From: Chloroflexota bacterium
GTDB lineage: Bacteria > Chloroflexota > UBA11872 > VXOZ01
NCBI GenBank assembly: GCA_965216245.1
Contig: OZ244145.1
Location: 820,943 to 884,942, forward strand
Reading direction: 5' to 3'
DNA length: 64,000 nucleotides
Shown: piece after piece, positions 1 through 35,560 of the stretch
How positions within the stretch are numbered: the stretch's first letter is position 1
Layout: each line of letters begins with the position of its first letter
The notes under the pieces: model-generated
Databases searched by the model: none
What the model was told of the DNA's origin: nothing
The model's input: the letters and a program-made list of their open reading frames with translations, nothing else
Program-made: the position numbers and the translations under genes

Positions 1-864
1 ATGGGTGTGCAGGTCGCCAAAGAAGATGCGGTCGCTGCTTGCCTCTACTACGTCAATCGGGTTGCTAACGCCGGATAAGCCAGATTCCCACGCCGCAGCC
101 GTAACCGTGACCGGGCCTACCGCATTCCTGGCAACGATGAATGGCCCAATCCGCGCCGTGCCGCCTTCACTCGCCGCAATGGCGAAAGGTGCAGGTCCGC
201 TGATGCCGCCCGGCTTCGCACCGAGAGCGACTTCCCCTTTAAAGTCCGTACAGACATTGCCATACGCATCCTCCACCCGCACCAGCACGGAAAATGCTTC
301 ACCAGTAGTAACCGTGGCAGGGGCAACCACGCCCAGGCGGGCGGGCGACCCGGCTACCACATCCACAATCGGCAATTCCGGCAACAACCGATAGCCTTTC
401 GGGTCGCCGCCGGGATAGCGCGGATTGCTGTAGCTGGCATTGCCCTGCACGTCGACCAAGACCTGGAAGTACATCTCAGTCATCGCGACTTCCTGGGCAC
501 GCGCGCGTTCGTAGAAACCGGCTACGTACGAGCCGGCATCACCGATGGTTACGGCGATTTCTTCGCCCGGTTGCAGCGCAGCACCCTCAACCGTGACAAA
601 GACACAAGGAAACTGCGCATGGTGGTATTTGAGCGGGTAGTCGTTCCGTACCTGCACGGAGACGCCACAGCTACCGCTCGTCGTGGCAATTACGTGGCCG
701 AGCCGCCACCGCACGCTATGCACACAGGGCGGAACCACGGCAATACCGCCGCCGGGAACGATACCGGCACTCCCCGCCGTATAGGTAAGCGTCCACGTGC
801 CAAATGCACCCGCAACGACCGGGCCCGCCGGATCAAGCGTGCAAGAGCCAAGTTCGGCTCGCAT
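1..864 (-). CDS. Hypothetical protein, C-terminally truncated by the window edge. It has a beta-rich N-terminal region followed by an FGDLHTH motif typical of the start of a PHP-type metal-dependent phosphoesterase domain. The start is an ATG at 864, or alternatively a GTG at about 957.
   Basis: Manual translation of the minus strand gives one uninterrupted frame from about 990 down to position 1 (..DRIFFGDLHTH at the edge). The ORF track does not list it because it has no in-window stop. The plus-strand ORFs 5-394 and 571-939 are low-complexity antisense artefacts. Confidence 0.45.
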   Translation of the reverse strand, partial: MRAELGSCTLDPAGPVVAGAFGTWTLTYTAGSAGIVPGGGIAVVPPCVHSVRWRLGHVIATTSGSCGVSVQVRNDYPLKYHHAQFPCVFVTVEGAALQPGEEIAVTIGDAGSYVAGFYERARAQEVAMTEMYFQVLVDVQGNASYSNPRYPGGDPKGYRLLPELPIVDVVAGSPARLGVVAPATVTTGEAFSVLVRVEDAYGNVCTDFKGEVALGAKPGGISGPAPFAIAASEGGTARIGPFIVARNAVGPVTVTAAAWESGLSGVSNPIDVVEASSDRIFFGDLHTH

Positions 865-1107
865 TGCAGCGTCTGTTGCTTCTGCAGTGACCTGCACGCC
901 ATGGGTAACACCCTGTTCTACTGGCGTTGGTGGTGCTGATTTCTTGCTTTCGCTCACTAGTGCGCTCCTCTGTAAGGAATGTAGCGCGATGACCTATCCG
1001 CTTTCCAATGCGCAGAGATTTGCCCCCCCCCCTCTTTGCCGTCCACTATGCCAGACGATCAACTCTAGACTTTGGGGCTATCTCACAACTCCCCATTTGT
1101 AAGGAGG

Positions 1108-1134
1108 GCGCAGGTTACAAACCTGCGCTACCGG
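1108..1134 (-). repeat. 26-nt hairpin repeat, reverse orientation (reverse complement is CCGGTAGCGCAGGTTTGTAACCTGCGC).
   Basis: Exact-match family with the copies at 19931 and 41751. Confidence 0.55.
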
Positions 1135-1295
1135 ACTACTCTCCCTTACTAAGACATTTCCGCGAACCGGTCCGCGAACCGGGACAGGCGAGAATACTCC
1201 TTCTCCCTGGGGAGAGGGCCGGGATGAGGGGAAATTCTCACCGTTTCAGCCAATTTCCGCGCGCTCGTCAGTTTTGCGCAAAGGTCTTCTTACGG

Positions 1296-2066
1296 CTACG
1301 CGCCAAATAGACGCGCCGCATTCTCTTTGAATAACTTCTGTTTGTACGCGTCCGCTATCTGCGTCTCGGTCTCGATGCTGAGCAACGCTGATTCATGGTA
1401 GTGCAGCGGAGAGTTGGAGCCAAACAGCACGTGGTCCGGCCCGATGGTCTTGCAGAGCTTTGCAACGTCGTGGATTGGCCCCTGCACGCGGCTGTTCTCT
1501 ACATACAGGTTATCGCGCTTATCCACGCCCTGCCAGATGCTCGTAACCTCTCGAAAACGCCCAGCAGTGACAAGAAAGCGCACCTGCGGGAAAGCGTTTA
1601 CCGTCTGGGCAATATCGCCAGCCGCAACATCCGGGACTATCACTAGACGGTGGTGATGCCGCACGTCTTCCAGGCCGATGGCAATGAGGATGAGCAGACC
1701 ATGCTCCTGCGCCATCTCCAGCAAGCGCAAGTTCTCTTGCCCAAGCAACTCATACTGGTGGTAATTGGGATGCAGGCGCAGATTCTGTACGCCAAGTTCT
1801 TCTAAGCAGATTTCCAAGTCTTCGTCCCAGCCCGGATACGCCGGATTGACGGTATACGCCGGAATGAAGCGGTCCGGATGTGTTTGCACGATCTTGTGCA
1901 GTTCGCGGTTGCCGACGAGCAGGTCTTTGAAGAAGACATTCTCCAGACGTGAAACCACAGCCTTTTCTATGCCGAGGGCATCCATCTTGCGCAGCAGGGC
2001 ATCAGGCTGAGAGCAGGGCAAGCGGCGAAACGGCCACTCGCCGACATAGGCATTACTATCGATCAT
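1296..2066 (-). CDS. Amidohydrolase-2 family (PF04909) paralog with degenerate metal ligands (MIDSNAY instead of IDVHVH; GSN instead of GTD). It is a probable non-metal or pseudoenzyme variant. The start was moved to the internal Met that aligns with the paralog N-termini.
   Basis: Fold-level similarity to the two downstream paralogs. The N-terminus MIDSNAY aligns with MKGDLVAIIDVHVHT and MNAVIIDVHVHPH. Using M16 removes the 28-bp overlap with the upstream gene. Confidence 0.6.
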   Translation of the reverse strand: MIDSNAYVGEWPFRRLPCSQPDALLRKMDALGIEKAVVSRLENVFFKDLLVGNRELHKIVQTHPDRFIPAYTVNPAYPGWDEDLEICLEELGVQNLRLHPNYHQYELLGQENLRLLEMAQEHGLLILIAIGLEDVRHHHRLVIVPDVAAGDIAQTVNAFPQVRFLVTAGRFREVTSIWQGVDKRDNLYVENSRVQGPIHDVAKLCKTIGPDHVLFGSNSPLHYHESALLSIETETQIADAYKQKLFKENAARLFGA

Positions 2067-2083
2067 GAAATCCTGCCCTTCTT

Positions 2084-2884
2084 TCAAGCCTGGTGCTGGG
2101 CCGACTTGCACGCCGCCAGCACGCGCGCCATGTTTCTGTAGAGAATCTTCTCTTTATCTTCATTCTGCAGGTCCGTGCCAAGTACTTTCGCAAGCTGTGA
2201 GGGGAACGAGCGGCCCGGCATGTCGGTGCCAAAGATTACGCGGTCAGCTCCAACATGGTCAACGAGTATGTGCACGCCAGCCGCATTGCATTCGTTACCG
2301 GCGATATCCAGCAAAACATTGGGACAACTACGGAAGACCTTAGCGCCGTATTCGTAATCACCGCCGGCATGCGCCGCAATGATGGTGGCGTTCGGATGGC
2401 GGCGCGCCATATCCGCCACTATCTCCGGCGACGATTCCCCGTAGCCTAGTCCATCTGCCTTCAGCCACGTGTGCTGCAAGGCCGGCACGCGGTAGTGCGC
2501 ACAGATTTCCAGCAAGCGGTCCACGCGTGGATCGGAGCACGGCAGCGCGTGCCACAGCTTGAGACCGACAAAGTGCTGCTCCGTCAAGCGTCTCTCTAGC
2601 TCCGCCGCCGCGGCGTCAGCATGGTAGGGGTTCACGTAGCAGAAACCGCGCACGCGCTCGGGATAGCGCTGCATGAGCGCGTACGTCTCGTCATTGGAGC
2701 GCCGGCAGAATTCCGGCGTTGGGAATGAGTAGCGAGAAGCATCAGCCACCGGCCGGATGGCGTACGTCACAAGCACCGCGTCGAATTGCTCCGCTATTTC
2801 GATCTGTTCCGCGAAGTCGTCCAACGATTTCCCTACGTCGGTATGGACGTGGACGTCAATAATCGCCACCAAATCGCCTTTCAA
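2084..2884 (-). CDS. Amidohydrolase-2 family metal-dependent hydrolase/decarboxylase (the superfamily includes ACMSD, LigW and LigI).
   Basis: IDVHVHT HxH motif, a later AHAGG His and a GTDMP Asp, with TIM-barrel amidohydrolase_2 spacing. It is a close paralog of 3027-3836. Confidence 0.75.
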   Translation of the reverse strand: MKGDLVAIIDVHVHTDVGKSLDDFAEQIEIAEQFDAVLVTYAIRPVADASRYSFPTPEFCRRSNDETYALMQRYPERVRGFCYVNPYHADAAAAELERRLTEQHFVGLKLWHALPCSDPRVDRLLEICAHYRVPALQHTWLKADGLGYGESSPEIVADMARRHPNATIIAAHAGGDYEYGAKVFRSCPNVLLDIAGNECNAAGVHILVDHVGADRVIFGTDMPGRSFPSQLAKVLGTDLQNEDKEKILYRNMARVLAACKSAQHQA

Positions 2885-2908
2885 GTCTCAAGTGGGATAG
2901 TTCGCGAT

Positions 2909-2936
2909 GTCATTCCGAGCGCAGCGAGGAATCTAG
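2909..2936. repeat. Solo terminal-repeat unit of the same family (GTCATTCCGAGCGCAGCGAGGAATCTAG) between the two amidohydrolase paralogs.
   Basis: Exact match of the 18-nt core to the 22859 and 23244 copies. Confidence 0.5.
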
Positions 2937-3026
2937 GGCCTCGGTTTGCCATCCCTCGCCAGTTCTCTGCCCAAAATGACGGCACAACGGACCTGAATTC
3001 AATAGGAGCGCATTGCGCCCAAGATT

Positions 3027-3836
3027 TCAACACTGTGTAGCAAAGATCAACGGATTCTTGATGGTCTTGGTCCCGGCCAGTACTCGCGCCATATTCCCAT
3101 AGAGAATGTTGTCTTTATCGTCTGTACTTAAGTCCGCGCCCAGCACCTTTGCCAGTTGCGATGGAAAGGAACGGCCCGGCATGTCTGTGCCGAAGATTAC
3201 ACGGTCCGCCCCCACGTGATCCACGAGTATTTCCACATAGCCGGCGTTGCACTCGTTGCCGCCAATGTCGAGCAACACGTTGTCACACGAACGAAAGACC
3301 TTCGCACCATACTCGTAGTCGCCGCCGGCGTGGGCGGCAATGATTGTGGTGCGCGGATGGCGTTTTGCCAGCGCGGCGACCATCGCCGGCGGCGATTCGC
3401 CGGTCTTCTGTCCATTCGCCTTAATCCACGTGTGCTGAAGTGCGGGCACGCGGTAGTGGGCGCAAATCTCCATGAGCGCATCGAGCCGTACATCAACGCA
3501 CGGCACCGCCACCCAGAGCTTGAGGCCGACGAAGTGCTGCTGCCCCAAACGAAAATCAAGTTCGTCACACGCCTCCCGCGCATGGCCGGGGTTCACGTAG
3601 GCGAATCCCTGCACGCGCTCAGGGTAACGCTCCATCAACACGTGAGTCTGATCGTTGCAGGCGCGGATGTTCTCCGGTGTAGGGTATTCGTGGTTGTTCC
3701 CGACCTCTACCGGCCGCACTGAGTAGGTGACAAGGTGGGCATCAAACTGCTCAGCAATAGCGATCAACTCAGCGAAGTCATCTAATTTGCGTGAAACGTG
3801 TGGGTGCACGTGTACGTCTATAATCACCGCATTCAC
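3027..3836 (-). CDS. Amidohydrolase-2 family metal-dependent hydrolase/decarboxylase (tandem paralog).
   Basis: IIDVHVHPH, AHAGGDYEYGAKVF and GTDMPGRSFPSQLAKVLG are conserved with 2084-2884. I estimate about 75-80% nucleotide identity from eyeballing aligned stretches. Confidence 0.75.
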   Translation of the reverse strand: MNAVIIDVHVHPHVSRKLDDFAELIAIAEQFDAHLVTYSVRPVEVGNNHEYPTPENIRACNDQTHVLMERYPERVQGFAYVNPGHAREACDELDFRLGQQHFVGLKLWVAVPCVDVRLDALMEICAHYRVPALQHTWIKANGQKTGESPPAMVAALAKRHPRTTIIAAHAGGDYEYGAKVFRSCDNVLLDIGGNECNAGYVEILVDHVGADRVIFGTDMPGRSFPSQLAKVLGADLSTDDKDNILYGNMARVLAGTKTIKNPLIFATQC

Positions 3837-4021
3837 GCTCTTCTTTGGTTACACTGGGTTGAACTGCGAAGTTTCAAATTGCAATAGGAAACCAATCGCC
3901 AGCATAAGAACCACTAATCACTACACCGCGCACCCGCTGGCAACTGCATAAACTCAATGACTCCATGCGTAGAACACGCTGGCTTAGCAGCAAATGCCGC
4001 TAAGCCAGCGCAGCACGTCTT

Positions 4022-5467
4022 CTACCAACCGCCCACAAGCTCCTGCCACTTCTCGATGATAATGTTCCACTCCTGTTCGACGTTTGCGAGACCTTCTTGA
4101 ATCGTGATGTTCCCCGCCATGACATCGGGCAGGAATCTACTCAACGACGTCCGCATCTCGTCAGCGCCGGGAATCGGCAGCGAATGCGACGCTCGGAACG
4201 GGATCTGATAGCTCTGGTGTTCGAGGAACGGATCACCCTCGGTGAAATCGGGCGAATTGGCGACGGAGAGTCGAATGGGCACGCGGTCCCAGGCCTTTGC
4301 CCAGCGAATGTTATTCTCCGGGCGTGACACGAACTCAATCCAAGCAAACGCCTCTTCGGGCACCGTCGTCCACGACGCCATGATCCAGATGTGATGACCG
4401 CTCCAACTCGCTTGGCGCACGGCGTTGGGCGGCTTCGGGTGCTCGATGATACTAAACCCGAAGTCCGGGTCAATTGGATAGATTTCCGCCTTGCGCGTGG
4501 AGTACGTTGCATACATTGAGGCGGTAAAGTCGTTGACAAGCGCAGCCCCACGCGGAGATCCAGAAGGACGAGCCGTCTTGTGCAGTGTAGCCAGCGCATC
4601 CCAGCCGCCCTGCATATCGTTTAGCTTCTTGACCCACGTCAGTGCCTCAACGGCTTCGGGGCTATTGATGGCCGCTTTGGTCAGGTCGTCACTGACCCGC
4701 TGGCCGCCGAGCTGTAAGAACGGCGTAATCCATTGGAACCGTCCGCCGCTGCCCCATTCGGGCGGGAAGCCCGCTACCACTACATTGCCAGCAGAATCTT
4801 TCCGCAGGGTCTTCTGAATGACCGATTCAAGCTCATCCCACGTTGCAGGACCATTTTCCGGGTCCAATCCATTTTCCAGAAAGATGCTATTGTGCATATA
4901 GATAACGCGCAGATCCGGGCCGTAAGGAAAGCCATAGAGCTGACCGTCTTTGCTCCAGACCATATTCTCGGTCAGGCTATCCCAAATGTCCTCCATATCG
5001 ATGTTGGAGCTCTTGACGAGGTCATTCAAACCGCGCGCCTGGCCGAGCGCACCGTGCTCAATGGCGTGCCACTCGCCCCAGGAACTAATGTCGTGAGGAG
5101 TGTTGGCAGCGAACGCCGTTCTGAATGCGGCATAGCGTTCGCCTGAATTACTGGACGGCGGATTGACATCAAAGTCGATATCGGGATGCTCTGCGCGAAA
5201 CTCCGCCACAAGCTCCGCAGATACACCCTCTTCATCCTGGAACTTGAAGTACGGATGCGTTGCAAACAGCACGTATACGGACTCTTTTTCGGGGGCAGCA
5301 GCCTCTGCTTGCGGTGCTTCCGCTTGCTCTTCTGTAGCCGCGGTCTGAACAGGCACGGCACCGCAAGCTGCAAGTGCGAGGACACCTAATGCGCCTCCTG
5401 AACCTACCAGAACGTTGCGGCGTGAAATTCGCTTTGCGTGAAAATCCATTGGTCTGCCTTTCTCCAC
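4022..5467 (-). CDS. ABC transporter extracellular solute-binding protein, family 1 (carbohydrate-type). It is a Tat-signal lipoprotein (SRRNVLVGSGGALGVLALAAC). An alternative start is MDFHAKR at 5449.
   Basis: RR motif followed by a lipobox Cys. A Glu/Ala/Pro-rich linker is followed by a periplasmic-binding-protein type fold. It is paralogous to 13056-14432 (shared DPENGPATWDE block). Confidence 0.75.
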   Translation of the reverse strand: MEKGRPMDFHAKRISRRNVLVGSGGALGVLALAACGAVPVQTAATEEQAEAPQAEAAAPEKESVYVLFATHPYFKFQDEEGVSAELVAEFRAEHPDIDFDVNPPSSNSGERYAAFRTAFAANTPHDISSWGEWHAIEHGALGQARGLNDLVKSSNIDMEDIWDSLTENMVWSKDGQLYGFPYGPDLRVIYMHNSIFLENGLDPENGPATWDELESVIQKTLRKDSAGNVVVAGFPPEWGSGGRFQWITPFLQLGGQRVSDDLTKAAINSPEAVEALTWVKKLNDMQGGWDALATLHKTARPSGSPRGAALVNDFTASMYATYSTRKAEIYPIDPDFGFSIIEHPKPPNAVRQASWSGHHIWIMASWTTVPEEAFAWIEFVSRPENNIRWAKAWDRVPIRLSVANSPDFTEGDPFLEHQSYQIPFRASHSLPIPGADEMRTSLSRFLPDVMAGNITIQEGLANVEQEWNIIIEKWQELVGGW

Positions 5468-6589: not shown

Positions 6590-7879
6590 TTACCGTTGGC
6601 CAACGCCAAGATGCCGTTCCACCCGACGACTGACAAATGACATTGTGTACGTAAAGATCCAGAACACCACCGCCACGAATATGAAGAGCTCCCGTGCGTT
6701 GTCCGCGAATTGGACGTTGCCCTGCACGATGGAGCGTCCCATCTCCAAAATATCCAGCATGCCGACAATGTAAACCAGACTCGTGTCCTTGAACAGCGAA
6801 ATGAACTGCCCCACGATTGCGGGTATCACATTGCGGATAGCCTGAGGCAATTGTATCAGCATGGTGACCTGCCAGCCCGGCAGACCCAGGGCACGTGCCG
6901 CCTCGGCTTGACCCGGATGCAGTCCCTGCAGTCCCCCACGAATATTCTCGGCCGTGTACGCCGCCGAGAAGAGCGTAATCACAATAGCCGCCCGCGTCAC
7001 GGAGTCGACGGGAAAGTTCGACGGCAAGGCGAGCGGTACCAGCACTTGCGACATGAAAAGCAGCGTAATCAGCGGTACGCCGCGAAAAACCTCGATGAAT
7101 ACCACGCAGAGAACCTTGACCACCGGCAGATTGCTCCGCCGTCCGAGCGCCAGCAGCACACCAATTGGAAAAGCAAAGAAGATACCCGATACTGCCAGAA
7201 TCAGGTTGAGCATCAGGCCGCCCCACTTACGCGGCGCCACCTCTTCCATGCCGGGAAAACCCGGTAATCCGTTGAGCAACAGTAGCAGGAACACGTAGAT
7301 CGCAATGCCGCCGAGCACGAACGTGCGTGGTTGCCCGGTTCTAGGATGGCTACCCAAGCCGTAGCCTAGGCCGATGGTCAACACGTTAGCCAGAATAAGA
7401 GCACGCACCCACCAGGGCATTACCACGCCCTCGTGGAAGAGGCCGTAGGGCAGCACTCCTAGCAACACCGTAACGACGCTATAGCCGATGGCAATGCGCC
7501 GGGCAGCTCCACCCCACATGGCGGCAGCCATGCCGAAGAGGATTGAGACCAGCAGCCAACCTACTAACGGCCGCCATGCGAGTTCTGTTGGGTACAGGCC
7601 GATGAGATACTGTTGCGGTCGGCTCGCGATGAGCGTCCAGTCAGCGGTGCCGAAAACCCAGCGTATAATGCTCCAGATCAACCATAGGAGCATCGGTACA
7701 GTGACCACGGTCACAATGCCGCTAAGCCAGTTGCCAAATAAGTTGGTCCTAGCCCAACCAATCCAACCTGTTTCTGTGAGTGGCGGAGGCAGTGAGGGCG
7801 CCGGTTGCCACGATTCCGCAGTAGCCATAAAGCAGCTAGCCTTAATTGAACTGGATGTGCCGGTTATAAAGATTGCCAA
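6590..7879 (-). CDS. Amino-acid ABC transporter permease (AapM/BztC-like large permease). The likely true start is the internal Met at about 7828, which removes the 38-bp overlap.
   Basis: Multiple TM segments and the EAA loop motif GQAEAARALGLPGWQVTMLIQLPQAIRNVIP. Confidence 0.8.
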   Translation of the reverse strand: MAIFITGTSSSIKASCFMATAESWQPAPSLPPPLTETGWIGWARTNLFGNWLSGIVTVVTVPMLLWLIWSIIRWVFGTADWTLIASRPQQYLIGLYPTELAWRPLVGWLLVSILFGMAAAMWGGAARRIAIGYSVVTVLLGVLPYGLFHEGVVMPWWVRALILANVLTIGLGYGLGSHPRTGQPRTFVLGGIAIYVFLLLLLNGLPGFPGMEEVAPRKWGGLMLNLILAVSGIFFAFPIGVLLALGRRSNLPVVKVLCVVFIEVFRGVPLITLLFMSQVLVPLALPSNFPVDSVTRAAIVITLFSAAYTAENIRGGLQGLHPGQAEAARALGLPGWQVTMLIQLPQAIRNVIPAIVGQFISLFKDTSLVYIVGMLDILEMGRSIVQGNVQFADNARELFIFVAVVFWIFTYTMSFVSRRVERHLGVGQR

Positions 7880-9101: not shown

Positions 9102-10238
9102 CTAGCGCAGTGGCGCCGCATATATCTGACCGCCCTTGGGGCAGTCCGAGCACGGGGCATTCGACCACAACGCGTTGCGGGATCCTTCCCGCGGTAGATC
9201 GATGTCTGTCTCCGGACCCAAGTTCCGCGCATAGATCTCGCCGTAGTTCCCAACCATCTTGATTACGGTCTGCCCTACGATTTTATCGAGGCCCAATTCA
9301 TCTTGCCCGAACGAACCCTCTGTGCCAAGCAAGCGCTTTGCCTTCACGTTGTCCCCAACGGCCATCTCGTCAACGTTGGTCGAGTTGATACCGTACGCCT
9401 CGGCGTAAATCAAGATGCTCATTACCGTCTTTACAATGTCGAACCACTGCTCGTCGCCGTGAGGCACCAGCGGTCCCAGCGGCTCCTCGGAAATCGTCTC
9501 CGGCAGGATGACGTGTTCATCCGGATTAGTCAAAGAACTCCGCAGCGCCGTAAGCGCCGAGCGGTCGGTCGTGAACACTTCACAGGCGCCGCTCTTATAG
9601 GCCGCGAAGGCCACTTGCGCCTCTTCGAATGTCTTTGGATTATACTCCATATTGTTCTGGCGGAAGAAGTCGGCCATGTTCAGCTCAGAAGTGGTGCCGG
9701 TATTTACGCAGACCGCCGCGCCTGCCAACTCGTACGCGCTCGCCACTCCCAGGTTCCTAGGTACCATGAAGCCCTGGCCGTCATAGAACATCGTTTGCAC
9801 GAAATTTCCCCAAGCGGCGTCGCGGGACGTCGTCCACGTTGTCACGTACACGAGTAAATCCACTTCGCCCGACTGCATCACAGGCCCGCGCTCGGCAGCC
9901 GAAATCAGACGAATCTCAACGGCATCAGGATCACCTAACACGCCCGCAGCCACGGCCCGGCAGAGATCGATGTCAAAACCGACACTATTACCGGTTTCGT
10001 CCACGTAGCCAAACCCCGGCGTGTCGTTGAGGCTGGCACAGATGAGACGACCCCGAGCGCGCACTGCCTCAAGACGCGAGGTCTCAGCCTGCGCCACTAC
10101 AGCCTCGGTCTCAGGTTTTTCGGCAGAATTTTCCATCTCCGGCTCGGTAGTCGTGGCGCAGGCCGCGCTCAGCGCGAACATGAGCGCCATTCCCAAGACA
10201 GCCAAACACTTTCCCGTCTGATTCAAGCAAGTCCTCAT
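9102..10238 (-). CDS. General L-amino-acid ABC transporter substrate-binding lipoprotein (AapJ-like), copy 1.
   Basis: Signal peptide plus lipobox LSAAC. It has a family-3 SBP-like fold and shares most of its length with 10495-11622. Confidence 0.8.
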   Translation of the reverse strand: MRTCLNQTGKCLAVLGMALMFALSAACATTTEPEMENSAEKPETEAVVAQAETSRLEAVRARGRLICASLNDTPGFGYVDETGNSVGFDIDLCRAVAAGVLGDPDAVEIRLISAAERGPVMQSGEVDLLVYVTTWTTSRDAAWGNFVQTMFYDGQGFMVPRNLGVASAYELAGAAVCVNTGTTSELNMADFFRQNNMEYNPKTFEEAQVAFAAYKSGACEVFTTDRSALTALRSSLTNPDEHVILPETISEEPLGPLVPHGDEQWFDIVKTVMSILIYAEAYGINSTNVDEMAVGDNVKAKRLLGTEGSFGQDELGLDKIVGQTVIKMVGNYGEIYARNLGPETDIDLPREGSRNALWSNAPCSDCPKGGQIYAAPLR

Positions 10239-10439
10239 GGCATTCCCAGCCTCTTTGCTAAAGGCACCCTAAGACTCCACATCAATCAGAGCATACACCC
10301 ATTGCCGCAGCAGGGAAACCATTCGCAGTGCGGCACGCTGCGTAAGCTAGTCTATCTTGAACCTTGACCCAGCCCCTCATAACTACAGCGCAACACTGCT
10401 CCAGCATCCAGCAGCGCAGCGAGGTGGTAATACCAAAAG

Positions 10440-10475
10440 TCGCGTCGACCCGGAAGAGGTCCAGGCCGACGCGAC
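10440..10475. terminator. Hairpin GTCGCGTCG-N18-CGACGCGAC between the two aapJ paralogs.
   Basis: 9-bp stem read directly from the sequence. Confidence 0.35.
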
Positions 10476-10494
10476 GATTATCAGCGACTACGAA

Positions 10495-11622
10495 CTAGCG
10501 CAGCGGCGCAGCATAGATCTGTCCGCCCTTCGGGCAGTCAGTGCAAGGCGCATTCGACCACAGCGCATTGCGCGAACCCTCACGCGGCAGATTGACGTCC
10601 GTCTCCGGACCCAAGTTCCGCGCATAGATCTCGCCATAGTTGCCTACTGCCTTGATAACGTTCTGGCCCACTAGCTTATCAAGTCCCAACTGTTCTTGAC
10701 CAAATCCGCCTTCCGTGCCCAGCAAGCGCTTCGCCTTCACATTATCGCCAACGGCCATCGCGTCAACGTTGGTCGAGTTGATGCCGTAGGCTTCGCCGTA
10801 GATCAGGATGCTCATCACGGTCTTCACAATGTCGAACCACTGCTCGTCACCGTGGGGCACCACCGGTCCCAGCGGCTCCTCGGAAATCGTCTCCGGTAGA
10901 ATGATGTGTTCATCCGGATTAGGCAGAGCCGTCCTCAGCGCGGCAAGCTGCGAGCGGTCGTTAGTAAAGACTTCGCACGCGCCACTCTTGTAGGCTTCAA
11001 GCACCACGTCTGTATCTTCATAGACCTTCGGGTTGTACTCCAAGCCGTTCTGGCGGAAGTAGTCGGCCATGTTCAACTCGGTGGTCGTACCGCTGGTCAC
11101 ACAGACCGCGGCGCCAGCCAACTCAAGTGCGCTACTCACACCCAGGCTCTTCGGAACCATGAAGCCCTGGCCGTCGTAGAACATTGTCTGCGCGTAGTTA
11201 CCCCATGCAGCATCGCGCGAGGTCGTCCATGTGACGGTGCGTACGAGCAAGTCCACCTCGCCCGACTGGACGGTAGGTCCGCGCTCGGCAGCCGTAATCA
11301 AGCGGATTTCAAATGCATCCGGGTCGTTCAGCACGGCCGCTGCCACGGCGCGGCAAAGGTCGATGTCGAAGCCCACGCTATTGCCGGCCTCGTCTATGGA
11401 ACCGTAGCCCGGCACATCGTTGCGGCTAGCGCAAATGACGTGTCCCCGTTCCTTCACGGTTTCCAAGCGTGAAGTCTTAGCCGTTTCCACCACCACGGGC
11501 TTGGGTTCGCCATCTTTTTCCATCTCTCCCGAATCCGCCTCGTCATCACCGCACGCCACACTGAAAAGCAGCGCGAGCATGACGCCCAAAACGACCAGGA
11601 GCTTACAAAGATTTCTCATCAT
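10495..11622 (-). CDS. General L-amino-acid ABC transporter substrate-binding lipoprotein (AapJ-like), copy 2 (tandem paralog).
   Basis: Signal peptide plus lipobox FSVAC. Long near-identical blocks are shared with copy 1 (e.g. GNSVGFDIDLCRAVAA, LPETISEEPLGP). Confidence 0.8.
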   Translation of the reverse strand: MMRNLCKLLVVLGVMLALLFSVACGDDEADSGEMEKDGEPKPVVVETAKTSRLETVKERGHVICASRNDVPGYGSIDEAGNSVGFDIDLCRAVAAAVLNDPDAFEIRLITAAERGPTVQSGEVDLLVRTVTWTTSRDAAWGNYAQTMFYDGQGFMVPKSLGVSSALELAGAAVCVTSGTTTELNMADYFRQNGLEYNPKVYEDTDVVLEAYKSGACEVFTNDRSQLAALRTALPNPDEHIILPETISEEPLGPVVPHGDEQWFDIVKTVMSILIYGEAYGINSTNVDAMAVGDNVKAKRLLGTEGGFGQEQLGLDKLVGQNVIKAVGNYGEIYARNLGPETDVNLPREGSRNALWSNAPCTDCPKGGQIYAAPLR

Positions 11623-14971: not shown

Positions 14972-16438
14972 GTGGGCATCAGGATCTTACATACCAACGA
15001 CTTGCATGGCTTCGTGCGCGCGGCGCCGCGCCTGGCGCAGCGCGTGCAAGCAGAGCGCGCACAACACGACACTGTGCTCTTCATAGACGTTGGTGACTTC
15101 TTTCGACTAAATCGCCACCGCCGTCCGCAAGATGATGACCATGTGACGGCCTGGACTCTGCGCTCGCTTAGGTACGACATCGTAACGCCCGGGAATTCGG
15201 AACTCTCGCGCTTCGATCCTTGGCATCTGGACTTCTTGATCGCTCAGAACTGCGGCGCCATGCTCTGCACCAGCGGGTTCAACGCGCGCCTGCCGGCGTC
15301 GTGCCGACCCTACCGCTTGTTCACGCTGGACGGCTATCGGGTGTTGTTCATCGGCATCTGCACGGAAGACAACCACTGGGACTTGGCAGCGCCCACCAAC
15401 AACTTCTACGCTTCTGCGCGCCGTTCGGCGGCGAAGACCGCGAGCTTGGTGAACGCCTACCGCGATCGCGTAGATATGGTCGTTGTGCTCTCCCACTCCG
15501 GCATGGCGCAGGACATCCTGCTTGCCGAACAGATTCCAGAGATAGATCTCATTCTCAGCGGCCATTGCCACCATCCAACACTAAGGCCGATCTGCATTGG
15601 TAAGACGAAAATCGTCCAGGCCGGCCTCAACGGCATGTTTATGGGTCAGGTGGATATTACATCCTCAGATGGGAAACCTGTGATTGAGTCTAAGCTGCAT
15701 TCCATAGACGCGGAATCCCCTGAGGACCCGGTGATGGAGCGCCTTCTGCGCCTGCAGGGCCGACGGAAAGACCCCGAAATGCTGCGAACCATCGGCACTG
15801 CCGGGGAGAACGTGGGACAGGGCTACCTTTCGAGCAATGGGCTAGGCAACACCGTCACGGACATTTGGCGCAAGGCGACAGGAGCCGATATTGCTTGGAC
15901 GAAAGCGACCTTCATCACGCCGCTCTTTGCCCCAGGTCATGCCCTTACGGCCTGGGATATCCAACTCTGCATCAGAGGGTTCCCTCTCTCAAAATTGCTG
16001 ACGCTGACAGGCAATCAAGTCCGGCAAGCGCTCGAACACAGTGTCGCAGACCAATCGTATGCCTTCTTGCCACCCGATCGGCGTGACGAACTCGTGGGGC
16101 ATCTGGAATCCGCGTCGGCCCAGCCAGGCTGTAATTTCCTCCACCAATCCGGCATGCAGGTTCACGTCGACTTGACGCAACCGTTCGGCGAACGAGTGCA
16201 AGAGATTCGAGTGGGTGACAAGCCGCTGCAGCCAGAGGCTACCTACCGTGTGGCGATGGACGCATTCCACGCCAGAGGCGGATCGGCGTTTACGATGCTT
16301 GCCGATGCCCAAAGCCGAGAGGATCTAAGCATGGAAAACCCGATTGAGGCGTACGTGCGCGAGAATGGGACTCTCGAGGGTACGCTCGATGAGCGCTACA
16401 GCATCGTTGGGGCCACAGAGCTTGCCGCGCCGGCATGA
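14972..16438 (+). CDS. 5'-nucleotidase/UshA-like bifunctional metallophosphatase (calcineurin-like phosphoesterase domain plus 5'-nucleotidase C-terminal domain). There is no signal peptide.
   Basis: N-terminal ILHTNDLHG motif, a GNSE (GNHE-like) block and a long C-terminal substrate-binding domain. Confidence 0.75.
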   Translation: MGIRILHTNDLHGFVRAAPRLAQRVQAERAQHDTVLFIDVGDFFRLNRHRRPQDDDHVTAWTLRSLRYDIVTPGNSELSRFDPWHLDFLIAQNCGAMLCTSGFNARLPASCRPYRLFTLDGYRVLFIGICTEDNHWDLAAPTNNFYASARRSAAKTASLVNAYRDRVDMVVVLSHSGMAQDILLAEQIPEIDLILSGHCHHPTLRPICIGKTKIVQAGLNGMFMGQVDITSSDGKPVIESKLHSIDAESPEDPVMERLLRLQGRRKDPEMLRTIGTAGENVGQGYLSSNGLGNTVTDIWRKATGADIAWTKATFITPLFAPGHALTAWDIQLCIRGFPLSKLLTLTGNQVRQALEHSVADQSYAFLPPDRRDELVGHLESASAQPGCNFLHQSGMQVHVDLTQPFGERVQEIRVGDKPLQPEATYRVAMDAFHARGGSAFTMLADAQSREDLSMENPIEAYVRENGTLEGTLDERYSIVGATELAAPA

Positions 16439-19366: not shown

Positions 19367-19810
19367 TTATTGTTGCCCTTCGTGTGGCAGGTACGCGAGC
19401 AACTCCGGCTCGATCTCCTCCAACGGAAGGGCTTCATGGCAGATTGTGACGTCCGGCGGCGATCCGCCGGGAAGCCAAACAATGCGCCCAACCACCAGAT
19501 TATTTACAACGAAGAGCACCAGTATGCGCGCGTGCGGATAGCGGGCATGGAGGAATTCCGCAAACGGCAGCATGCGCTCCCGGCGTTGGGCGTCATCGAA
19601 GCCATGCCACGTCGCTACCGAAGGCTCATCCAGCGGCATGACGATTAGATTGGCGGCGTTCACCGCGGTCCGATACTCATCTTCCGTGCCGACGCAATCC
19701 ATGCTTTCCGGATTGAGCGAGAGGAAGGCGTCGCAGTTCCAATGCTCGCGCTTCTCCTGTCGGGAAATGAGGTCCGCGGCGGAGCGCGCTTCTCGGTTAT
19801 TGCCTGCCAT
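19367..19810 (-). CDS. Hypothetical protein (147 aa), same strand as and downstream of mutL.
   Basis: GC-rich third codon positions across the frame and non-repetitive composition. I recognise no family. Confidence 0.45.
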   Translation of the reverse strand: MAGNNREARSAADLISRQEKREHWNCDAFLSLNPESMDCVGTEDEYRTAVNAANLIVMPLDEPSVATWHGFDDAQRRERMLPFAEFLHARYPHARILVLFVVNNLVVGRIVWLPGGSPPDVTICHEALPLEEIEPELLAYLPHEGQQ

Positions 19811-19930
19811 GATTGTCGTTAGCCCCTGTTTGGGAAAACTGAGTCTTCGTTTTTAAAGCGGAGGACAAGCCCTAATATTGTCGCATTAACTTTTCTGGCA
19901 AGGAACATGGCGCTTTCATTGCCCCACATC

Positions 19931-19956
19931 TCCGGTAGCGCAGGTTTGCAACCTGC
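19931..19956 (+). repeat. 26-nt hairpin repeat CCGGTAGCGCAGGTTTGCAACCTGCG in the mutL downstream intergenic region.
   Basis: 6- to 7-bp stem CGCAGG(T)/(A)CCTGCG with a 7-nt loop TTTGCAA (anticodon-loop-like). Confidence 0.55.
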
Positions 19957-20136
19957 GTCTGTTGTAGGGTCAATCCCTTGCGCACCCGTTTCTCTCAGCG
20001 AAAATGCTAAAGACGCGCCCTGTGCTGCTGACGTGGCCGCAGTTCCGCGTGCTCTGGCGGGGGACAAGCCCCCGCGCTACATTTCATCTTTCATCTGGGC
20101 AAACATACCCACTACACTATGGAATTTTATTCTTGG

Positions 20137-21846
20137 TCACGTGCGTCCGAATTCCCGCGCCAATTGCGAGTGCGAGAGGCGCACCATCGTGGGCCGGCCG
20201 TGGGGACACGTGCGCGCAAGGTCGCAGCGCTCCAGCGCGCCCAACAGCGCCTCGATCTGCTCGTGCGAAAGCACGTCTCCGGCCTTTACTGCTCCGTGGC
20301 ATGCAATTATCCATCGGAGCCGCTCTAGGGGGTCGCCGCGATAGTCGGGGTTATCCTTTTGCTCGATCACCGTCGCCACAAATTGCCCCCAGTCATAACC
20401 TTTCTCCGCAAGGAAAACGGGAACCGCCCGCAAGAGCCATGCGCCACTGCCAAATGGCTCCAGTTTAAACCCCATACGCTGGATTTCCTCCACGTGCGCC
20501 TCCAGCCATTGCAGGTGCGTCGGCGCGAGTGAAAGCGGCTGCGGCTGGAGTAACTGCTGGCTCAGTGCTTCGGGCAATCGCTTGAGCACGGCTTCGTAGA
20601 GGACACGCTCGTGCGCTGAATGCTGGTCGATCAGATACATGCCGTCGAATCCCTCGGCTATCACGTACATCGCGCTGAGCTGCCCCACGACGCGCAACTC
20701 TGAGGGCGCAACTGGAGCGGCAGGCACCGAACCGTTGTCCGGTGCGACTGATGCGCCATCCGCCGGACGAAAGAGGTCTACTGCCTGCGCTGATCGGCCC
20801 GAGTCCACGGACACTTCGGTTCCGCGCCACGAATCCATGGACTGAAAGTGCTGGCGCATTGGCTGCACTGCAACGTGCTGCGCTAATTCCGACCGCATCA
20901 CGTGGCGCATCTGCCGCATGACACGGCCGCTATCTTTAAGCCGAATATCCGACTTTTGCGGGTGGACGTTTACGTCGACTTCCTCCCAAGGGAGCGAGAC
21001 GTCCAAGGCTGCCAAAGGGTACCGTCCGTCAGGCATGAGCTCTGCGTATACATCCGTGACAGCGTAGGCTAGGGCCCGCTGCTGCACCCAGCGGCTGTTT
21101 ACGAAAAGAGAAACTCCCGTCCGGTTGCCGCGATTCACGGTGGGCTGAACGAGCACGCCGTGCATTAGCGGATCGTCCACCGGAATCAATTGCTCGGCAA
21201 TCTCGTGGCCGTACATTGAGATAAAGACGTCCTCCATCCGTCCGCTGCCACTTGAAGAAAAGACCTCTCGCCCATTGACGCTAAGTTCAAAGCGCACCGC
21301 GGGATGGCTCAGAGCAAGATGCTGCACGCACTGGACGATACGCTGCGTTTCTGCCTGAGGGCTCTTACAAAAGGCGAGCCGCGCCGGTATGTTGAAGAAG
21401 AGGTGCCGCACGTCCACGGCAGTGCCTACCGACCCGGCCGTCGCCGCCATCTCGGTCTGCTCGCCGCCAACGGCTGTCAGCACGTGCGCCGAGCGGTCCT
21501 GTGCTGTACGGGATCGGATATCCAAATGGGAAACCGCCGCTATTGAAGCCAGCGCTTCACCCCGAAACCCCAGCGTACGTATGGCCGCAAGATCATCCAC
21601 GCTGCTGATCTTGCTAGTGGCGTAACGGCGCACCGCGAGCGGAAGATCCTCCGCTACAATCCCAACACCGTTATCTTCAATACCGATCCGGCGCAATCCG
21701 CCCTGCTCGATTCCAACGGTGATGGCAGTGGCCTGGGCATCGAGGGCGTTCTCACAGAGTTCCTTCACCACCGATGCCGGACGTTCGACTACTTCCCCCG
21801 CCGCAATCTTCGCCGCGAGTGCTGCAGACAATACTTGGACGGCCAT
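20137..21846 (-). CDS. mutL: DNA mismatch repair protein MutL. The start was moved to the internal Met (MAVQVLSAALAAKIAAGEVVERP); the ORF extension to 22038 is upstream read-through.
   Basis: GHKL ATPase N-terminal motifs (ELCENALDA, GIEDNGVGI) and a C-terminal dimerisation domain. Confidence 0.85.
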   Translation of the reverse strand: MAVQVLSAALAAKIAAGEVVERPASVVKELCENALDAQATAITVGIEQGGLRRIGIEDNGVGIVAEDLPLAVRRYATSKISSVDDLAAIRTLGFRGEALASIAAVSHLDIRSRTAQDRSAHVLTAVGGEQTEMAATAGSVGTAVDVRHLFFNIPARLAFCKSPQAETQRIVQCVQHLALSHPAVRFELSVNGREVFSSSGSGRMEDVFISMYGHEIAEQLIPVDDPLMHGVLVQPTVNRGNRTGVSLFVNSRWVQQRALAYAVTDVYAELMPDGRYPLAALDVSLPWEEVDVNVHPQKSDIRLKDSGRVMRQMRHVMRSELAQHVAVQPMRQHFQSMDSWRGTEVSVDSGRSAQAVDLFRPADGASVAPDNGSVPAAPVAPSELRVVGQLSAMYVIAEGFDGMYLIDQHSAHERVLYEAVLKRLPEALSQQLLQPQPLSLAPTHLQWLEAHVEEIQRMGFKLEPFGSGAWLLRAVPVFLAEKGYDWGQFVATVIEQKDNPDYRGDPLERLRWIIACHGAVKAGDVLSHEQIEALLGALERCDLARTCPHGRPTMVRLSHSQLAREFGRT

Positions 21847-22157
21847 GCTTAGTTCCTCTCCACGTTCTCCCTGATAGCAGGATAGCAATCGCAACCGTTG
21901 GGGGTCAAAAGCCCACGCCGACCGTGCGCACATTGACGGGAAGAGTCTGGATGGTGATGCAAGCCCCTGCAACGGCCCTGCCGGATGGAAACACAGTTCC
22001 GCTCGTTCCTTTGACCCGCATAGAATCGCTAGGCTCACGTCCGGAGTGCGGACAAAGTCAAAGACTTACCCTCTGCCACTGCATACAAAATCCGAGAGCA
22101 ACTCATGTATATATATCTCTAGACACTATATTATCTAAACTATATTCATAAAGATAC

Positions 22158-22750: not shown

Positions 22751-22808
22751 AGGCGTCTTGGTATTCTAGGCTGGATCGCTAAATTGCCGTCATTCCTGTA
22801 AATGTTGA

Positions 22809-23058
22809 GTAATTCGTTGACAGAATTCGCTTTCCACCAGGCAGCGTTGACCGATTATGTCATTCCGAGCGCAGCGTCGAACAGTGTTCGCTGACTTCGT
22901 CAAAGACGCGGAATCTGGAGTCCATGTCGCACCTAGTCCAATAGGCTCAGCACTTTAGATTCCTCTCTGCGCTGCGCTCCGTTCGGAATGACATGTGTAC
23001 AAGGCATGCACGACGCGTCGCTTATCTTCTCTTTATTGAAAATCTGTCAACGAATTAC
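22809..23058. mobile_element. Composite MITE-like element, consistent with nesting. Outer inverted repeats GTAATTCGTTGACAGA (22809-22828 and 23043-23058). They enclose an inner 135-bp element (22859-22993) bounded by GTCATTCCGAGCGCAGCG...CGCTGCGCTCCGTTCGGAATGAC inverted repeats.
   Basis: The inverted repeats were read directly. There is no ORF encoding a transposase, so it is non-autonomous. Confidence 0.55.
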
Positions 23059-23243
23059 CTGACACCTACAATTCCCGTGCAAACGGGAATCCATCTTCTC
23101 CGCACTGCGCACGTAGCCATTGGCGGAGGACAAGCCTCCGTGCTTCAGTTTCTTGCAATCAAATTCCGAAACGGAATTAGTAGACCTAGGCTTGAAGCCT
23201 TTGCGAGGCAGCGGTTCTTGTCATTTGCATATTGCCTTTTGGT

Positions 23244-23357
23244 GTCATTCCGAGCGCAGCGTCGAACAGGGTTCGCGGAATCTAGAATGCCCCCGACTCT
23301 AGATTCTTCGTCGCGGAGTTTATCCTGAGCTTGCCGAAGGGCTCCTCAGAGAATGAC
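23244..23357. mobile_element. Second MITE-like copy of the same family (GTCATTCCGAGCGCAGCGTCGAACAGGGTTCGCGGAATCTAGA ... GAGAATGAC) with an internal GAATCTAGA/TCTAGATTC palindrome.
   Basis: The left end is nearly identical over about 30 nt to the copy at 22859. The right end is degenerate. Confidence 0.5.
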
Positions 23358-33372: not shown

Positions 33373-33770
33373 GAAGCGCTGCTTGAAAGTTGCAGGCGCG
33401 CCTTCTGCTGCGTCGTTAGGCTCAATCTGGGAGGAAGTCGTGGGCTCGATGACGTTGTCTCACGTTTCTAGGATGAATTACCTTCTCATAATACCGAATG
33501 CCCTGCAGTCGCCGCTAACCGCCAGGCGATTCTGCGCGCTGCCGCCCCTCATCGCTCTCAAGGGCGGAATCACCGATTGTAGGCCGGCAAACTCCGGCTA
33601 CGCACTCAATGGTTCCCACTACTGGCACACTTGCCTCCCTCATGTGCTAGAGTTCTTCCCTATTAGCCCCGAAACGATGCACCTAGCAGCAAGCTTTGAA
33701 CACCGTTACACTACAAAGATGCATAGAAACAACTCAGCCACCTCCATGGTTAAGGCAAGGAGCAAGAGAA

Positions 33771-34980: not shown

Positions 34981-35025
34981 AAAACGTTACGCCTGTGGGT
35001 GGAAGGCCCACAGGCGTAACGTTTT
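34981..35025. terminator. Bidirectional terminator between convergent M42 and CxxCH genes. It has 19-bp perfect inverted repeats (AAAACGTTACGCCTGTGGG / CCCACAGGCGTAACGTTTT), an A-run on one side and a T-run on the other.
   Basis: Palindrome read directly from the sequence. Confidence 0.65.
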
Positions 35026-35062: not shown

Positions 35063-35560
35063 CTACTTCACGTCCGCAGAAAAGAGAAAGTCATTGTCGC
35101 GCACGTCGCCGTGGCACTCAGTACAGCCCTCGACTTTGCCCTCGGCCTCTATCATGCCGTCGGCCGCATATTTCAGGAAGAACCACCCGTTCGCATCCGC
35201 ATTCTCGTAGCCGGCAGGCTTATACATCACTGTAACTGCGGCCAGCGTACCGTCGGGCTTGTAGTTCTCTTTGACGACCATACCGCCAACGGGAATACTC
35301 CCCGCCTTGTCTTCAATCGCCTGCATAGCGATCGCGTTGAAGTACGTGCTCAGCAAAGCGCCGTGCGGGTCCTGCCCGGTATACAAGGGCTCCGCTCCCG
35401 GCAAATGCTGCCAGGCGTTCTGATAATCGGCTGCCCCGAGATATTCTATGATGGCGGCTCCGTCGGCAGCCGGGGCCTCAGCACCCATATCCTCGGATTC
35501 TTCGGCGACTGCGCATCCCGCCAACAGCACCATCGCTCCCAAGAGCACGACACTGAGCAT
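35063..35560 (-). CDS. Haem-binding lipoprotein of the cytochrome P460 / cytochrome c'-beta family (166 aa). The start was moved to MLSVVLLGAMVLLAGC; the longer ORF to 36046 runs antisense through the crp gene.
   Basis: Signal peptide plus lipobox LAGC. A single C-terminal CTECH (CxxCH) motif and a size of 160-170 aa, as in P460 and c'-beta proteins. Confidence 0.5.
   Translation of the reverse strand: MLSVVLLGAMVLLAGCAVAEESEDMGAEAPAADGAAIIEYLGAADYQNAWQHLPGAEPLYTGQDPHGALLSTYFNAIAMQAIEDKAGSIPVGGMVVKENYKPDGTLAAVTVMYKPAGYENADANGWFFLKYAADGMIEAEGKVEGCTECHGDVRDNDFLFSADVK

Follow-up and report, generated by a model that had tools for sequence, protein, structure and literature searches.

The hairpin that recurs three times in the 64-kb window, the whole stretch of Chloroflexota DNA that was analyzed here, represents a dispersed family of GTAG-type repetitive extragenic palindromes (REPs), which we denote as REP1. 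REPs are palindromes of 20–50 nt that follow a conserved unpaired tetranucleotide, usually GTAG, and that are multicopy, mainly intergenic, and often clustered (PMC8266576; PMC3733652). The short palindrome, the unpaired 5′ GTAG, the high and dispersed copy number, the extragenic bias, and the clustering were all observed for REP1, and its assignment to the GTAG-type REPs is therefore very probably correct. The overall explanation that best accounts for the data, to which we assign a probability of approximately 0.8, is that REP1 is a dispersed GTAG-type REP family that presumably originated through the activity of a REP-associated tyrosine transposase (RAYT), that its hairpins have been retained at their sites, and that one of the three copies in the window (copy 2) was delivered by a MITE. 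As a sequence family, REP1 is new, with the 24 listed GTAG families having been compared by description only, and it belongs to a kind of repeat that has long been known. Since the family belongs to a known class and its likeness to a tRNA is coincidental, the finding is real but ordinary.

Exact matches to the 26-mer CCGGTAGCGCAGGTTTGYAACCTGCG were identified at three positions in the window (Table 1), which confirms the three copies claimed in a preliminary description of this DNA and places them within 1 nt of the coordinates given there. None of 100 dinucleotide-preserving shuffles of the sequence contained a match, even when up to three mismatches were allowed, and the gene map and Pfam annotation place all three copies between genes, as had also been claimed. 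The exactness of the three copies, their absence from shuffled sequence, and their intergenic location indicate that the repeat is real and non-random. No additional degenerate REP1 copies emerged in the window when the stem or the 5′ half was sought under relaxed conditions, and a repeat finder recovered the same three copies, extended by at most 1–3 common bases. When 260 nt around each copy were aligned, the core alone was common to the three and the flanks did not align.

The neighbors of copy 1 are an amidohydrolase gene (1296–2111, minus strand) and an unknown gene (1–957, minus strand); on the minus strand, the copy is positioned 162 nt past the amidohydrolase stop and approximately 150 nt ahead of the start of the next gene. 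Copy 2 is flanked by a small open reading frame (ORF; 19367–19810, minus strand) and by the 3′ end of mutL (20137–22038, minus strand). Copy 3 lies between genes encoding a GFO/IDH/MocA oxidoreductase (40616–41659, plus strand) and a PALP / D-cysteine desulfhydrase-like protein, 92 nt past the stop of the former and approximately 99 nt ahead of the likely start of the latter, which was placed at approximately 41875 because its orthologues comprise 348 aa.

Table 1. REP1 copies and associated hairpin and MITE features in the 64-kb window.
Feature	Position	Strand	Description
REP1 copy 1	1109–1134	−	CCGGTAGCGCAGGTTTGTAACCTGCG; exact match, fold
MITE left end remnant	19858–19890	+	Half REP2 hairpin GCGGAGGACAAGCCC, then terminal inverted repeat TAATATTGTCGCATTAAC (19873–19890)
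REP1 copy 2	19932–19957	+	Exact match; loop TGC; within truncated MITE
REP2 copy	20056–20080	−	GTAGCGCGGGGGCTTGTCCCCCGCC; approximately 100 nt downstream of copy 2, tail-to-tail; internal REP2 of the MITE
GTAG palindrome tagged on both strands	37219–37248	.	AGTAGGGGCGGTTCGCGAACCGCCCCTACT; between convergent genes; window hairpin census
REP1 copy 3	41751–41776	+	Exact match; loop TGT
GTAG-tagged hairpin	44709–44735	+	GTAGGGGCACGATATATCGTGCCCCTA; further REP-like class; window hairpin census

Minimum free energy folds, calculated for either RNA or single-stranded DNA, comprise a stem of 8–9 bp (GCGCAGGTT/AACCTGCGC) that is closed by a loop of 3 nt. The hairpin had previously been drawn with a stem of 6–7 bp and a loop of 7 nt; while a 6-bp stem with a 7-nt loop can indeed be drawn, the T-T and A-A of that proposed loop pair with each other in the favored fold. 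The folding energy of the REP1 core as single-stranded DNA ranged from −8.9 to −11 kcal/mol, with a z score of approximately −4.3 relative to shuffles, and the z scores of 66-nt RNA contexts ranged from −1.8 to −3.4. In each of the three copies in the window, GGTAG directly precedes the stem, and the GTAG is unpaired in the folds.

REP1 is abundant in related genomes. A scan with the pattern GGTAGCGCAGGTTNNNAACCTGCG, conducted on one genome per species and with matches grouped in 8-kb blocks, identified at least 149 further exact-stem copies in at least 115 such blocks, for a total of at least 152 when the three copies in the window are included. Flank-limited extraction was possible for 147 of the 149 locus copies. 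Nearly all of the listed blocks are from approximately 16 Chloroflexota MAGs, with at least 18 separate blocks on chromosome OY760183.1 and at least 13 on OZ244922.1. Several blocks (L024, L039, L048, L068, and L101) are from MAGs that are labeled as other phyla, and these have other loop triplets.

The consensus of the family is c-T-C-C-G-GTAG-CGCAGGTT-TGY-AACCTGCG-y-C-C. The GGTAG was demanded by the scan pattern and its conservation among the loci is therefore by construction. Bases that the pattern did not require were also kept: T, C, and C at positions −3 to −1 were present in 98, 128, and 131 of the 152 copies listed, respectively, and C at position +2 was present in 99 of the 152.

The listed copies are predominantly extragenic, with 101 of the 152 located outside of greedily called ORFs that together cover 85% of the DNA. 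The ORFs that contain the other 51 are mostly short (100–220 aa) and have codon-position GC contents (GC1/2/3) like those of non-coding DNA, and approximately 6–9 of the listed copies appear to be truly intragenic. Among the copies listed, convergent spacers were more common than divergent spacers (30 vs. 10), while orientation relative to flanking co-directional genes was nearly balanced (27 sense, 23 antisense). Orientation with respect to local GC skew, a weak test of replication strand, was 55 vs. 37 (p = 0.08). No T-run was found 3′ of the REP1 stem, where positions +1 through +6 are instead rich in C, and a scan of positions 900–1400 around copy 1 detected nothing that resembles a terminator. 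Without a T-tract, REP1 does not qualify as an intrinsic terminator.

More than half of the listed REP1 copies have another GTAG hairpin within 400 nt. This second class, denoted as REP2 (GTAGCGCGGGGGCTTGTCCCCCGC), has the GTAGCGC and the stem base in common with REP1. A total of 86 REP1-REP2 pairings at distances of up to 400 nt were identified among the listed loci, 65 of which are inverted and 21 direct. Pairs of neighboring REP1 copies are mostly direct (28 of 32), and two of the four inverted pairs (those of L051 and L068) are in fact single palindromes with GTAG on both strands. With 4 of 32 pairs inverted, REP1 rarely forms REPINs, which are inverted doublets of the same REP at a short, fixed spacing. 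Direct tandem arrays were found to comprise six units of approximately 98 nt (L083), three units of 57 nt (L069), or three units of approximately 50 nt (L104). A census of hairpins in the window identified two more GTAG-tagged elements (Table 1). The palindrome that is tagged on both strands represents an additional class of REP within this genome, and a hairpin at locus L117 (GTAGGGGCACGGCATGCCGTGCCCCT) resembles the second of the two elements.

A single RAYT ORF (L014, positions 7371–7865, minus strand) was identified among the listed REP1 loci and the window in phmmer searches that used a sequence of E. coli RayT as a probe and then the Chloroflexota RAYT itself. This ORF includes one in-frame TGA that was read through for scoring. 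Its product scored 93.1 bits against the NCBIfam model NF047646 (‘REP-associated tyrosine transposase’; cutoff of 80) and matched PF01797. The best match in the PDB was 4er8, the TnpA-REP of E. coli (E = 3.6e-6), which indicates that the Chloroflexota RAYT is related only distantly to enzymes that have been studied. Further homologs comprise an intact RAYT of 165 aa in a 3.37-Mb Chloroflexota chromosome (L116; OZ244803-like genome), a RAYT of 135 aa on a 580-kb contig (L117), and an intact RAYT of 163 aa in OY760183.1 (L204, positions 4695–5183) with the HUH motif MPDHAHLV and the Tyr motif RYVLNNPV. Thus, two genomes that carry REP1 also encode an intact RAYT, namely the OZ244803-like genome and OY760183.1, the latter of which is the genome richest in REP1 matches listed. 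The syntenic RAYT locus (L204–L206) was reached via a neighboring AP_endonuc_2 protein; the RAYT site is empty in one related genome (L206), and the context of L205 is unrelated.

The RAYT genes of L014, L116, L117, and L204 are bracketed by inverted REP2. Upstream of each gene are several REP2 in its own orientation and downstream are several in the opposite one, an arrangement that is classic for REPtrons. A metagenome scan with the RAYT alignment identified 80 REPtron-like loci, none of which have REP1, and no RAYT flanked by REP1 was found in these 80 loci, in the 115 listed REP1 loci, in the window, or in the four related RAYT loci. Because the flanks of RAYT comprise REP2, the REPtron arrangement applies to REP2 and not to REP1, and for the same reason the link between REP1 and RAYT is one that we infer. 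We consider the chances to be about even that the same RAYT, or a paralogue since lost, serves REP1. A shared enzyme is plausible because the two hairpins have the GTAGCGC and stem base in common and because relatives of RAYT are often accompanied by two hairpin classes. Specifically, GTAG hairpins were present within 450 nt in 67 of 84 loci that encode RAYT relatives, and at least two distinct classes were present in 36, as judged by clustering of whole hairpins, which replaced an uninformative classification by loop length. The typical pairing at such loci comprises a CTTGT-loop class (REP2-like) and a TTTA/TTCA-loop class (REP1-like). No RAYT was detected in the window, and none of the RAYT clusters among the homologs found was assigned to the genomes nearest to the window (OZ244922.1 and others), which suggests that the lineage of the window may lack RAYT.

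Approximately 19 of 146 listed REP1 copies, including copy 2 of the window, have approximately 100 nt in common on each side. Inverted ends with the sequence (C)CCyAATGCTGTCGCATTAA were identified 160–280 nt apart in at least nine loci, and in at least 14 loci plus copy 2, REP1 is at a fixed position within an element of approximately 200 nt. The interior of this element also includes an inverted REP2 that is located 68–70 nt beyond REP1 in approximately 15 copies. The element interrupts a target REP2 hairpin within its loop, and the loop sequence (ACAAG or CTTGT) is found as a duplication at both ends. At L204, a 1.2-kb IS that is bounded by these same ends encodes a DDE_Tnp_1 transposase and is also inserted in a REP2 loop, with the CTCGT loop duplicated or, on an alternative boundary, with a 13-bp duplication. 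This full-length IS does not include REP1. The composite around copy 2 is non-coding, shorter than 300 nt, and multicopy, and has inverted ends that match the IS and a target duplication. Its IS-identical ends and its insertion in a REP2 loop therefore indicate that it is a MITE of a REP-targeting IS. The left end, REP1, and internal REP2 remain in the window and the right inverted repeat is missing; since the left end alone survives, the window element is a remnant. The inverted-repeat ends are absent near copies 1 and 3 of the window and near most loci, which indicates that the MITE is a secondary vehicle rather than the origin of the family.

Comparison of orthologous spacers suggests that REP1 copies are long-lived. 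The stem of copy 1 is kept in orthologous spacers in L049, L092, and L040, with loops ACA, TCA, and ACA, respectively. The ortholog of copy 2 in L046 is 96–98% identical, and OZ244922.1 and the window are likewise 96–98% identical around copy 2. Copy 3 is in the same relative place in L018, L112, L198, L201, and L202/L203, and the rest of the spacer is unalignable. More generally, the stem is exact and the surroundings are unalignable in orthologous spacers among the listed REP1 loci, a sample that is biased because the loci were chosen for the repeat. An unbiased set of spacers was obtained via the PALP protein encoded beside copy 3, whose orthologues are 82–97% identical. The copy 3 site is occupied in all four assemblies that were fetched independently of the repeat in this way (L198, L201, and L202/L203), and the flanking protein is 82–88% identical in the diverged genomes that keep the copy. 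The variant in L202/L203, CACGTAGCGCAGGTTGCAAACTTGCG, keeps its pairing by a G-T wobble on the sense strand. From the conserved stop-codon region to the ribosome-binding site, REP1 is the only part of the copy 3 spacers that aligns. No empty REP1 site was found in any orthologous spacer recovered. The presence of copy 3 at one site across the clade indicates that it is ancestral to the clade and has been retained. This agrees with the long-term vertical persistence that has been published for REP/RAYT systems (bioRxiv 10.1101/2021.07.10.451892), and it also fits selection on the hairpin. Exact stems in otherwise unalignable spacers fit such selection at least as well as they fit selfish spread.

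Several other explanations for REP1 were weighed against this evidence. The preliminary description recognized in the hairpin the logic of a tRNA anticodon arm and included a remnant of tRNA-targeted integration among its three candidate explanations. A tRNA-derived REP1 would be what is left of a tRNA gene or of tRNA-targeted integration, or it would imitate the anticodon stem-loop of either tRNA-Ala(UGC) or tRNA-Thr(UGU). The possibility of drawing a 6-bp stem with a T-T-NNN-A-A loop speaks for such an origin, as does the predominance of TGC (61) and TGT (51) among the loop triplets of the copies listed. However, the favored loop is 3 nt and the stem is 8–9 bp, compared to 5 bp in an anticodon arm. 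Moreover, the loop triplet varies, with 11 distinct triplets among the listed copies (the others being TGA, 12; TCA, 5; ACA, 5; TGG, 4; TCC, 3; TAT, 2; and three singletons), and at orthologous sites it may flip to its reverse complement (TGT in the window vs. ACA/TCA; TGC vs. GCA). ARAGORN detected no tRNA in the window, and thus none at or beside any of the three copies, which bears out the earlier statement that the hairpin is not a tRNA gene; it also detected none at any REP1 copy in the 115 listed related loci, or approximately 150 copies in all. Five tRNAs were identified in approximately 0.9 Mb of REP1 loci, each at least 0.5 kb from the nearest copy, and neither tRNA-Ala(UGC) nor tRNA-Thr(UGU) was present in the retrieved DNA. 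Rfam yielded no match across the whole window at gathering thresholds and noise matches only when relaxed to E ≤ 10 for positions 19700–20200. Integrase or att-like context was also absent. A restriction of the hairpin to three copies, or tRNA pseudogenes in its flanks, would have spoken against the earlier account; at least 149 further exact-stem copies were found in related genomes, and no tRNA remnants. Collectively, these observations effectively refute a tRNA-derived origin, to which we attach next to no probability, and the likeness to an anticodon arm is a coincidence of a triloop closed by T and A. The first of the three candidates, a REP-like palindromic repeat, is the one that the data bear out. 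We attach a similarly negligible probability to the possibilities that REP1 is a palindromic binding site for a transcription factor, serving as an operator or promoter within a regulon, or that it is a repeat like those of CRISPR arrays. In favor of these readings, REP1 is a perfect palindrome, two of its three copies in the window precede genes, and periods of 47–57 nt are regular at some loci. Yet, the flanking genes are functionally unrelated, convergent spacers are preferred over divergent ones, a scan confined to the region around copy 1 found nothing like a sigma-70 site, and at least 152 copies are too many for one regulon. The ‘spacers’ of the arrays are 70–80% alike, indicating that these are tandem duplications and not CRISPR arrays. 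Readings as sigma-54 or ECF promoters were dropped upon inspection by eye, where the spacing did not fit and nothing downstream was conserved. It is also improbable, albeit less so, that REP1 is simply an internal segment of the MITE that owes its spread to the DDE transposase encoded by the parent IS. The fixed place of REP1 within an IS-ended element with a duplicated target, in copy 2 and at least 14 loci, and the inverted REP2 at +68 to +70 in approximately 15 copies, would follow from such an origin. However, this context characterizes approximately 19 of 146 copies, whereas copies 1 and 3 and most loci are without an inverted-repeat end (AATGCTGTCGCATTAA ends) and have unrelated flanks, and REP1 is missing from the full-length IS.

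The alternative with the most to recommend it is that REP1 is a host-selected hairpin, a stem-loop that is kept for a function in the cell and for which a transposase is irrelevant today. This is compatible with REP1 being a REP, and we regard it as a possibility of some substance, if on balance an unlikely one. Candidate functions include protection of the 3′ end of an upstream mRNA, attenuation of read-through between co-directional genes, and binding of a nucleoid protein or gyrase. Exact or nearly exact stems at the same site, in independently obtained spacers that are otherwise unalignable and next to a protein that is 82–88% identical, are consistent with such a role. So too are the bias toward the 3′ ends of genes that is evident in the excess of convergent over divergent spacers, the G-T wobble that preserves pairing on the sense strand in L202/L203, and the lack of RAYT in the genomes nearest to the window among the clusters found. 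In contrast, selection for a function in the transcript would not predict the lack of orientation preference (27 vs. 23), although a palindrome folds on either strand, and the tandem units of L083, L069, and L104 are nearly identical and resemble the products of amplification rather than function. The absence of a T-tract after the stem and of a terminator-like site also argues against it. Further, a simple RNA hairpin has no use for the conserved, unpaired, and strand-specific TCCGGTAG extension. An unpaired, strand-specific 5′ extension is a hallmark of RAYT substrates (PMC8266576).

Based on these considerations, we favor the interpretation of REP1 as a dispersed GTAG-type REP family, and its history might be envisioned as follows. 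The top strand of REP1 would fold into a hairpin when single-stranded, as is the case in characterized REP systems. A RAYT would recognize the GTAG together with the hairpin, cut at a nearby dinucleotide, and rejoin the strands, and it is through such cutting and rejoining that copies of REP1 may have been created and maintained. Once settled, copies would long persist at unchanged intergenic positions, probably because the hairpin is useful or harmless in the transcript or in the DNA, for example as a hairpin at the 3′ end of an mRNA. Copy 2 arrived by a different route, having been carried by a MITE whose parent is an IS with a DDE transposase that inserts into REP2 loops. A more specific version of this scenario is tentative and, taken as a whole, doubtful: REP1 may be an orphan GTAG hairpin class that brackets no transposase gene and that is either served in trans by a domesticated, single-copy RAYT flanked by REP2 or unserved in the lineage of the window. 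Selection on the hairpin would then keep its copies at specific intergenic positions throughout a Chloroflexota clade of genus or family rank, and layered upon this would be a DDE IS that targets REP2 loops and a MITE that ferries REP1.

Among the known systems, REP1 is most readily compared with the GTAG-type REP superfamily of Di Nocera et al. (2013), in which 24 GTAG families were described, some of them in Chloroflexi, such that GTAG-type REPs have already been reported in this phylum in general terms (PMC3733652). Members of the superfamily, like REP1, have an unpaired terminal GTAG, a stem of 6–13 bp, and a loop of 2–3 nt, are located between co-directional or convergent ORFs as singletons, dimers, or clusters, and are represented by several families per genome with occasional intragenic copies; REP1 differs from the superfamily so described in its conserved TCCG extension 5′ of the GTAG (PMC3733652). 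The Chloroflexota case also resembles Group 3 REPtrons, in which a TnpA-REP is associated with short perfect-palindrome REPs, for example in Stenotrophomonas maltophilia and Marinomonas Mb (Corneloup et al., 2021; PMC8266576). Both feature a GTAG followed by a short perfect palindrome and a single-copy HUH/Y1 gene that is bracketed by inverted REPs. Unlike in Group 3 REPtrons, however, the gene for the Chloroflexota enzyme is bracketed by the sibling REP2 and not by REP1.

The BIMEs of E. coli are mosaics of the y, z1, and z2 REP classes, and the stems of E. coli REPs have a bulge. REP1 and REP2 are like BIMEs in that two REP classes are often adjacent and inverted (65 vs. 21) and in that tandem reiterations are present. 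In contrast to BIMEs, the stems of REP1 are perfect, its spacing is irregular outside of the MITE, and its homodimers are mostly direct. Inverted homodimers (REPINs) are typical of Pseudomonas systems. ISs that target REPs are also known and include IS1397 and ISPpu9/10, among others (Tobes and Pareja, 2006; PMC1525189). Similarly, the IS of L204 and its MITE derivatives, including the remnant around copy 2, interrupt REP2 loops, and the loop sequence is duplicated to either side of the insertion. Features that set the L204 system apart from these ISs are its DDE_Tnp_1 transposase and a MITE that carries REP1 and REP2 as cargo. To our knowledge, a MITE with REP1-like and REP2-like internal cargo has not been described.

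For annotation, these findings suggest that such hairpins should be masked as REP repeats and that calling them operators, small RNAs, or relics of tRNAs would be mistaken. What is known of REP/RAYT systems in general is unchanged. REP1 adds to this picture a non-proteobacterial example from Chloroflexota MAGs, in which several GTAG classes coexist and one RAYT is bracketed by one of them. It further provides a case in which a copy has been kept at one orthologous site despite 82–88% identity of the neighboring protein, with a second such site supported by a biased sample, and a case of an IS/MITE pair that lands in REP loops. Finally, REP1 and REP2 represent a tractable pair of substrates for examining how a RAYT discriminates between hairpins.

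Between orthologous sites, the 3-nt loop of the GTAG-tagged hairpin REP1 is often the reverse complement of its counterpart (TGT versus ACA, TGA versus TCA, TGC versus GCA), as revealed by comparison of window copies 1 and 3 with five related loci (L049, L092, L040, L112, and L202). Where the loop is reverse complemented, the stem is constant. Collectively, these sequence comparisons suggest that the loop may have been inverted through the palindrome or that the REP1 copy may have been replaced.

In a related genome (L204), a 1.2-kb insertion sequence (IS) has inserted exactly in the loop of a hairpin of the second GTAG class, REP2, that lies directly upstream of the gene for a REP-associated tyrosine transposase (RAYT). 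The IS ends, CCCCAATG...CATTGGGG, rebuild a hairpin on each side of the element, and MITE derivatives of this IS carry REP1 and REP2 as cargo. The RAYT gene of a second relative (L014; 7371-7865(-)) has one in-frame TGA at the position of a Trp in intact orthologues (QRQV*KLGE versus EVWKLG); either this gene is a pseudogene or the TGA is a sequencing error.

REP1 copy 1 is adjoined by a hairpin-like insert, CTCCCTGGGGAGAGGGCCGGGATGAGGGG (window 1195-1235). L092 and L040 lack this insert in their orthologous spacers, which gives it the appearance of a further small mobile repeat; two other loci (L004 and L016) contain a similar sequence, GGGGAGAGGGCCGGGGTGAGGGG. A second dispersed repeat, (A)TGTCATTCCGAGCGCAGCG..., is unrelated to the GTAG hairpins, and the spacer at 22.8-23.3 kb contains a cluster of three of its copies along with other inverted repeats (22797-22827 / 23040-23070). 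The TCTRCGCGCCRTTYTCGCG array sits in the spacer between divergent genes (50874-52766(-) and 52928-54037(+)), and a related 18-mer occurs at 15409-15426. The inverted repeat located between convergent genes 33696-34808(+) and 35063-36046(-) is likely a bidirectional intrinsic terminator. The tandem paralogues share 71-82% DNA identity (9102-10238 versus 10495-11622) and ~73% identity (2084-2884 versus 3027-3836).

Coordinates of repeats, genes, and mobile elements in the window and in related loci
Feature	Source	Positions
(A)TGTCATTCCGAGCGCAGCG... repeat copies	Window	2907-2944, 22857-22894, 22975-22994(-), 23243-23279, 44924-44960(-)
Tandem paralogous gene pairs	Window	9102-11622; 2084-3836
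19-nt unit TCTRCGCGCCRTTYTCGCG, four head-to-tail copies	Window	52793-52868
Perfect 19-bp inverted repeat, 7-nt loop, TTTT at end	Window	34981-35025
1.2-kb IS encoding DDE_Tnp_1 transposase	L204 (OY760183.1)	3375-4575
REP1 copies within long ORFs	L022; L041; L078; L015	1115(-); 5575/5641(-); 4521(-); 2842(-)

The few REP1 copies within these ORFs may be truly intragenic insertions, since the host ORFs are long (412-1087 aa) with gene-like GC3. The GGTAGCGCAGGTT...AACCTGCG stem was also identified, with other loops (CCC, TCC, and AGT/ACT), in L024, L039, L048, L068, and L101, from metagenome-assembled genomes labeled Armatimonadetes, Ca. Hebobacteria, Bacillota, Acidobacteriota, and, in one case, unclassified ‘uncultured bacterium’. 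Its presence in these genomes could reflect mis-binning, convergence, or horizontal spread.
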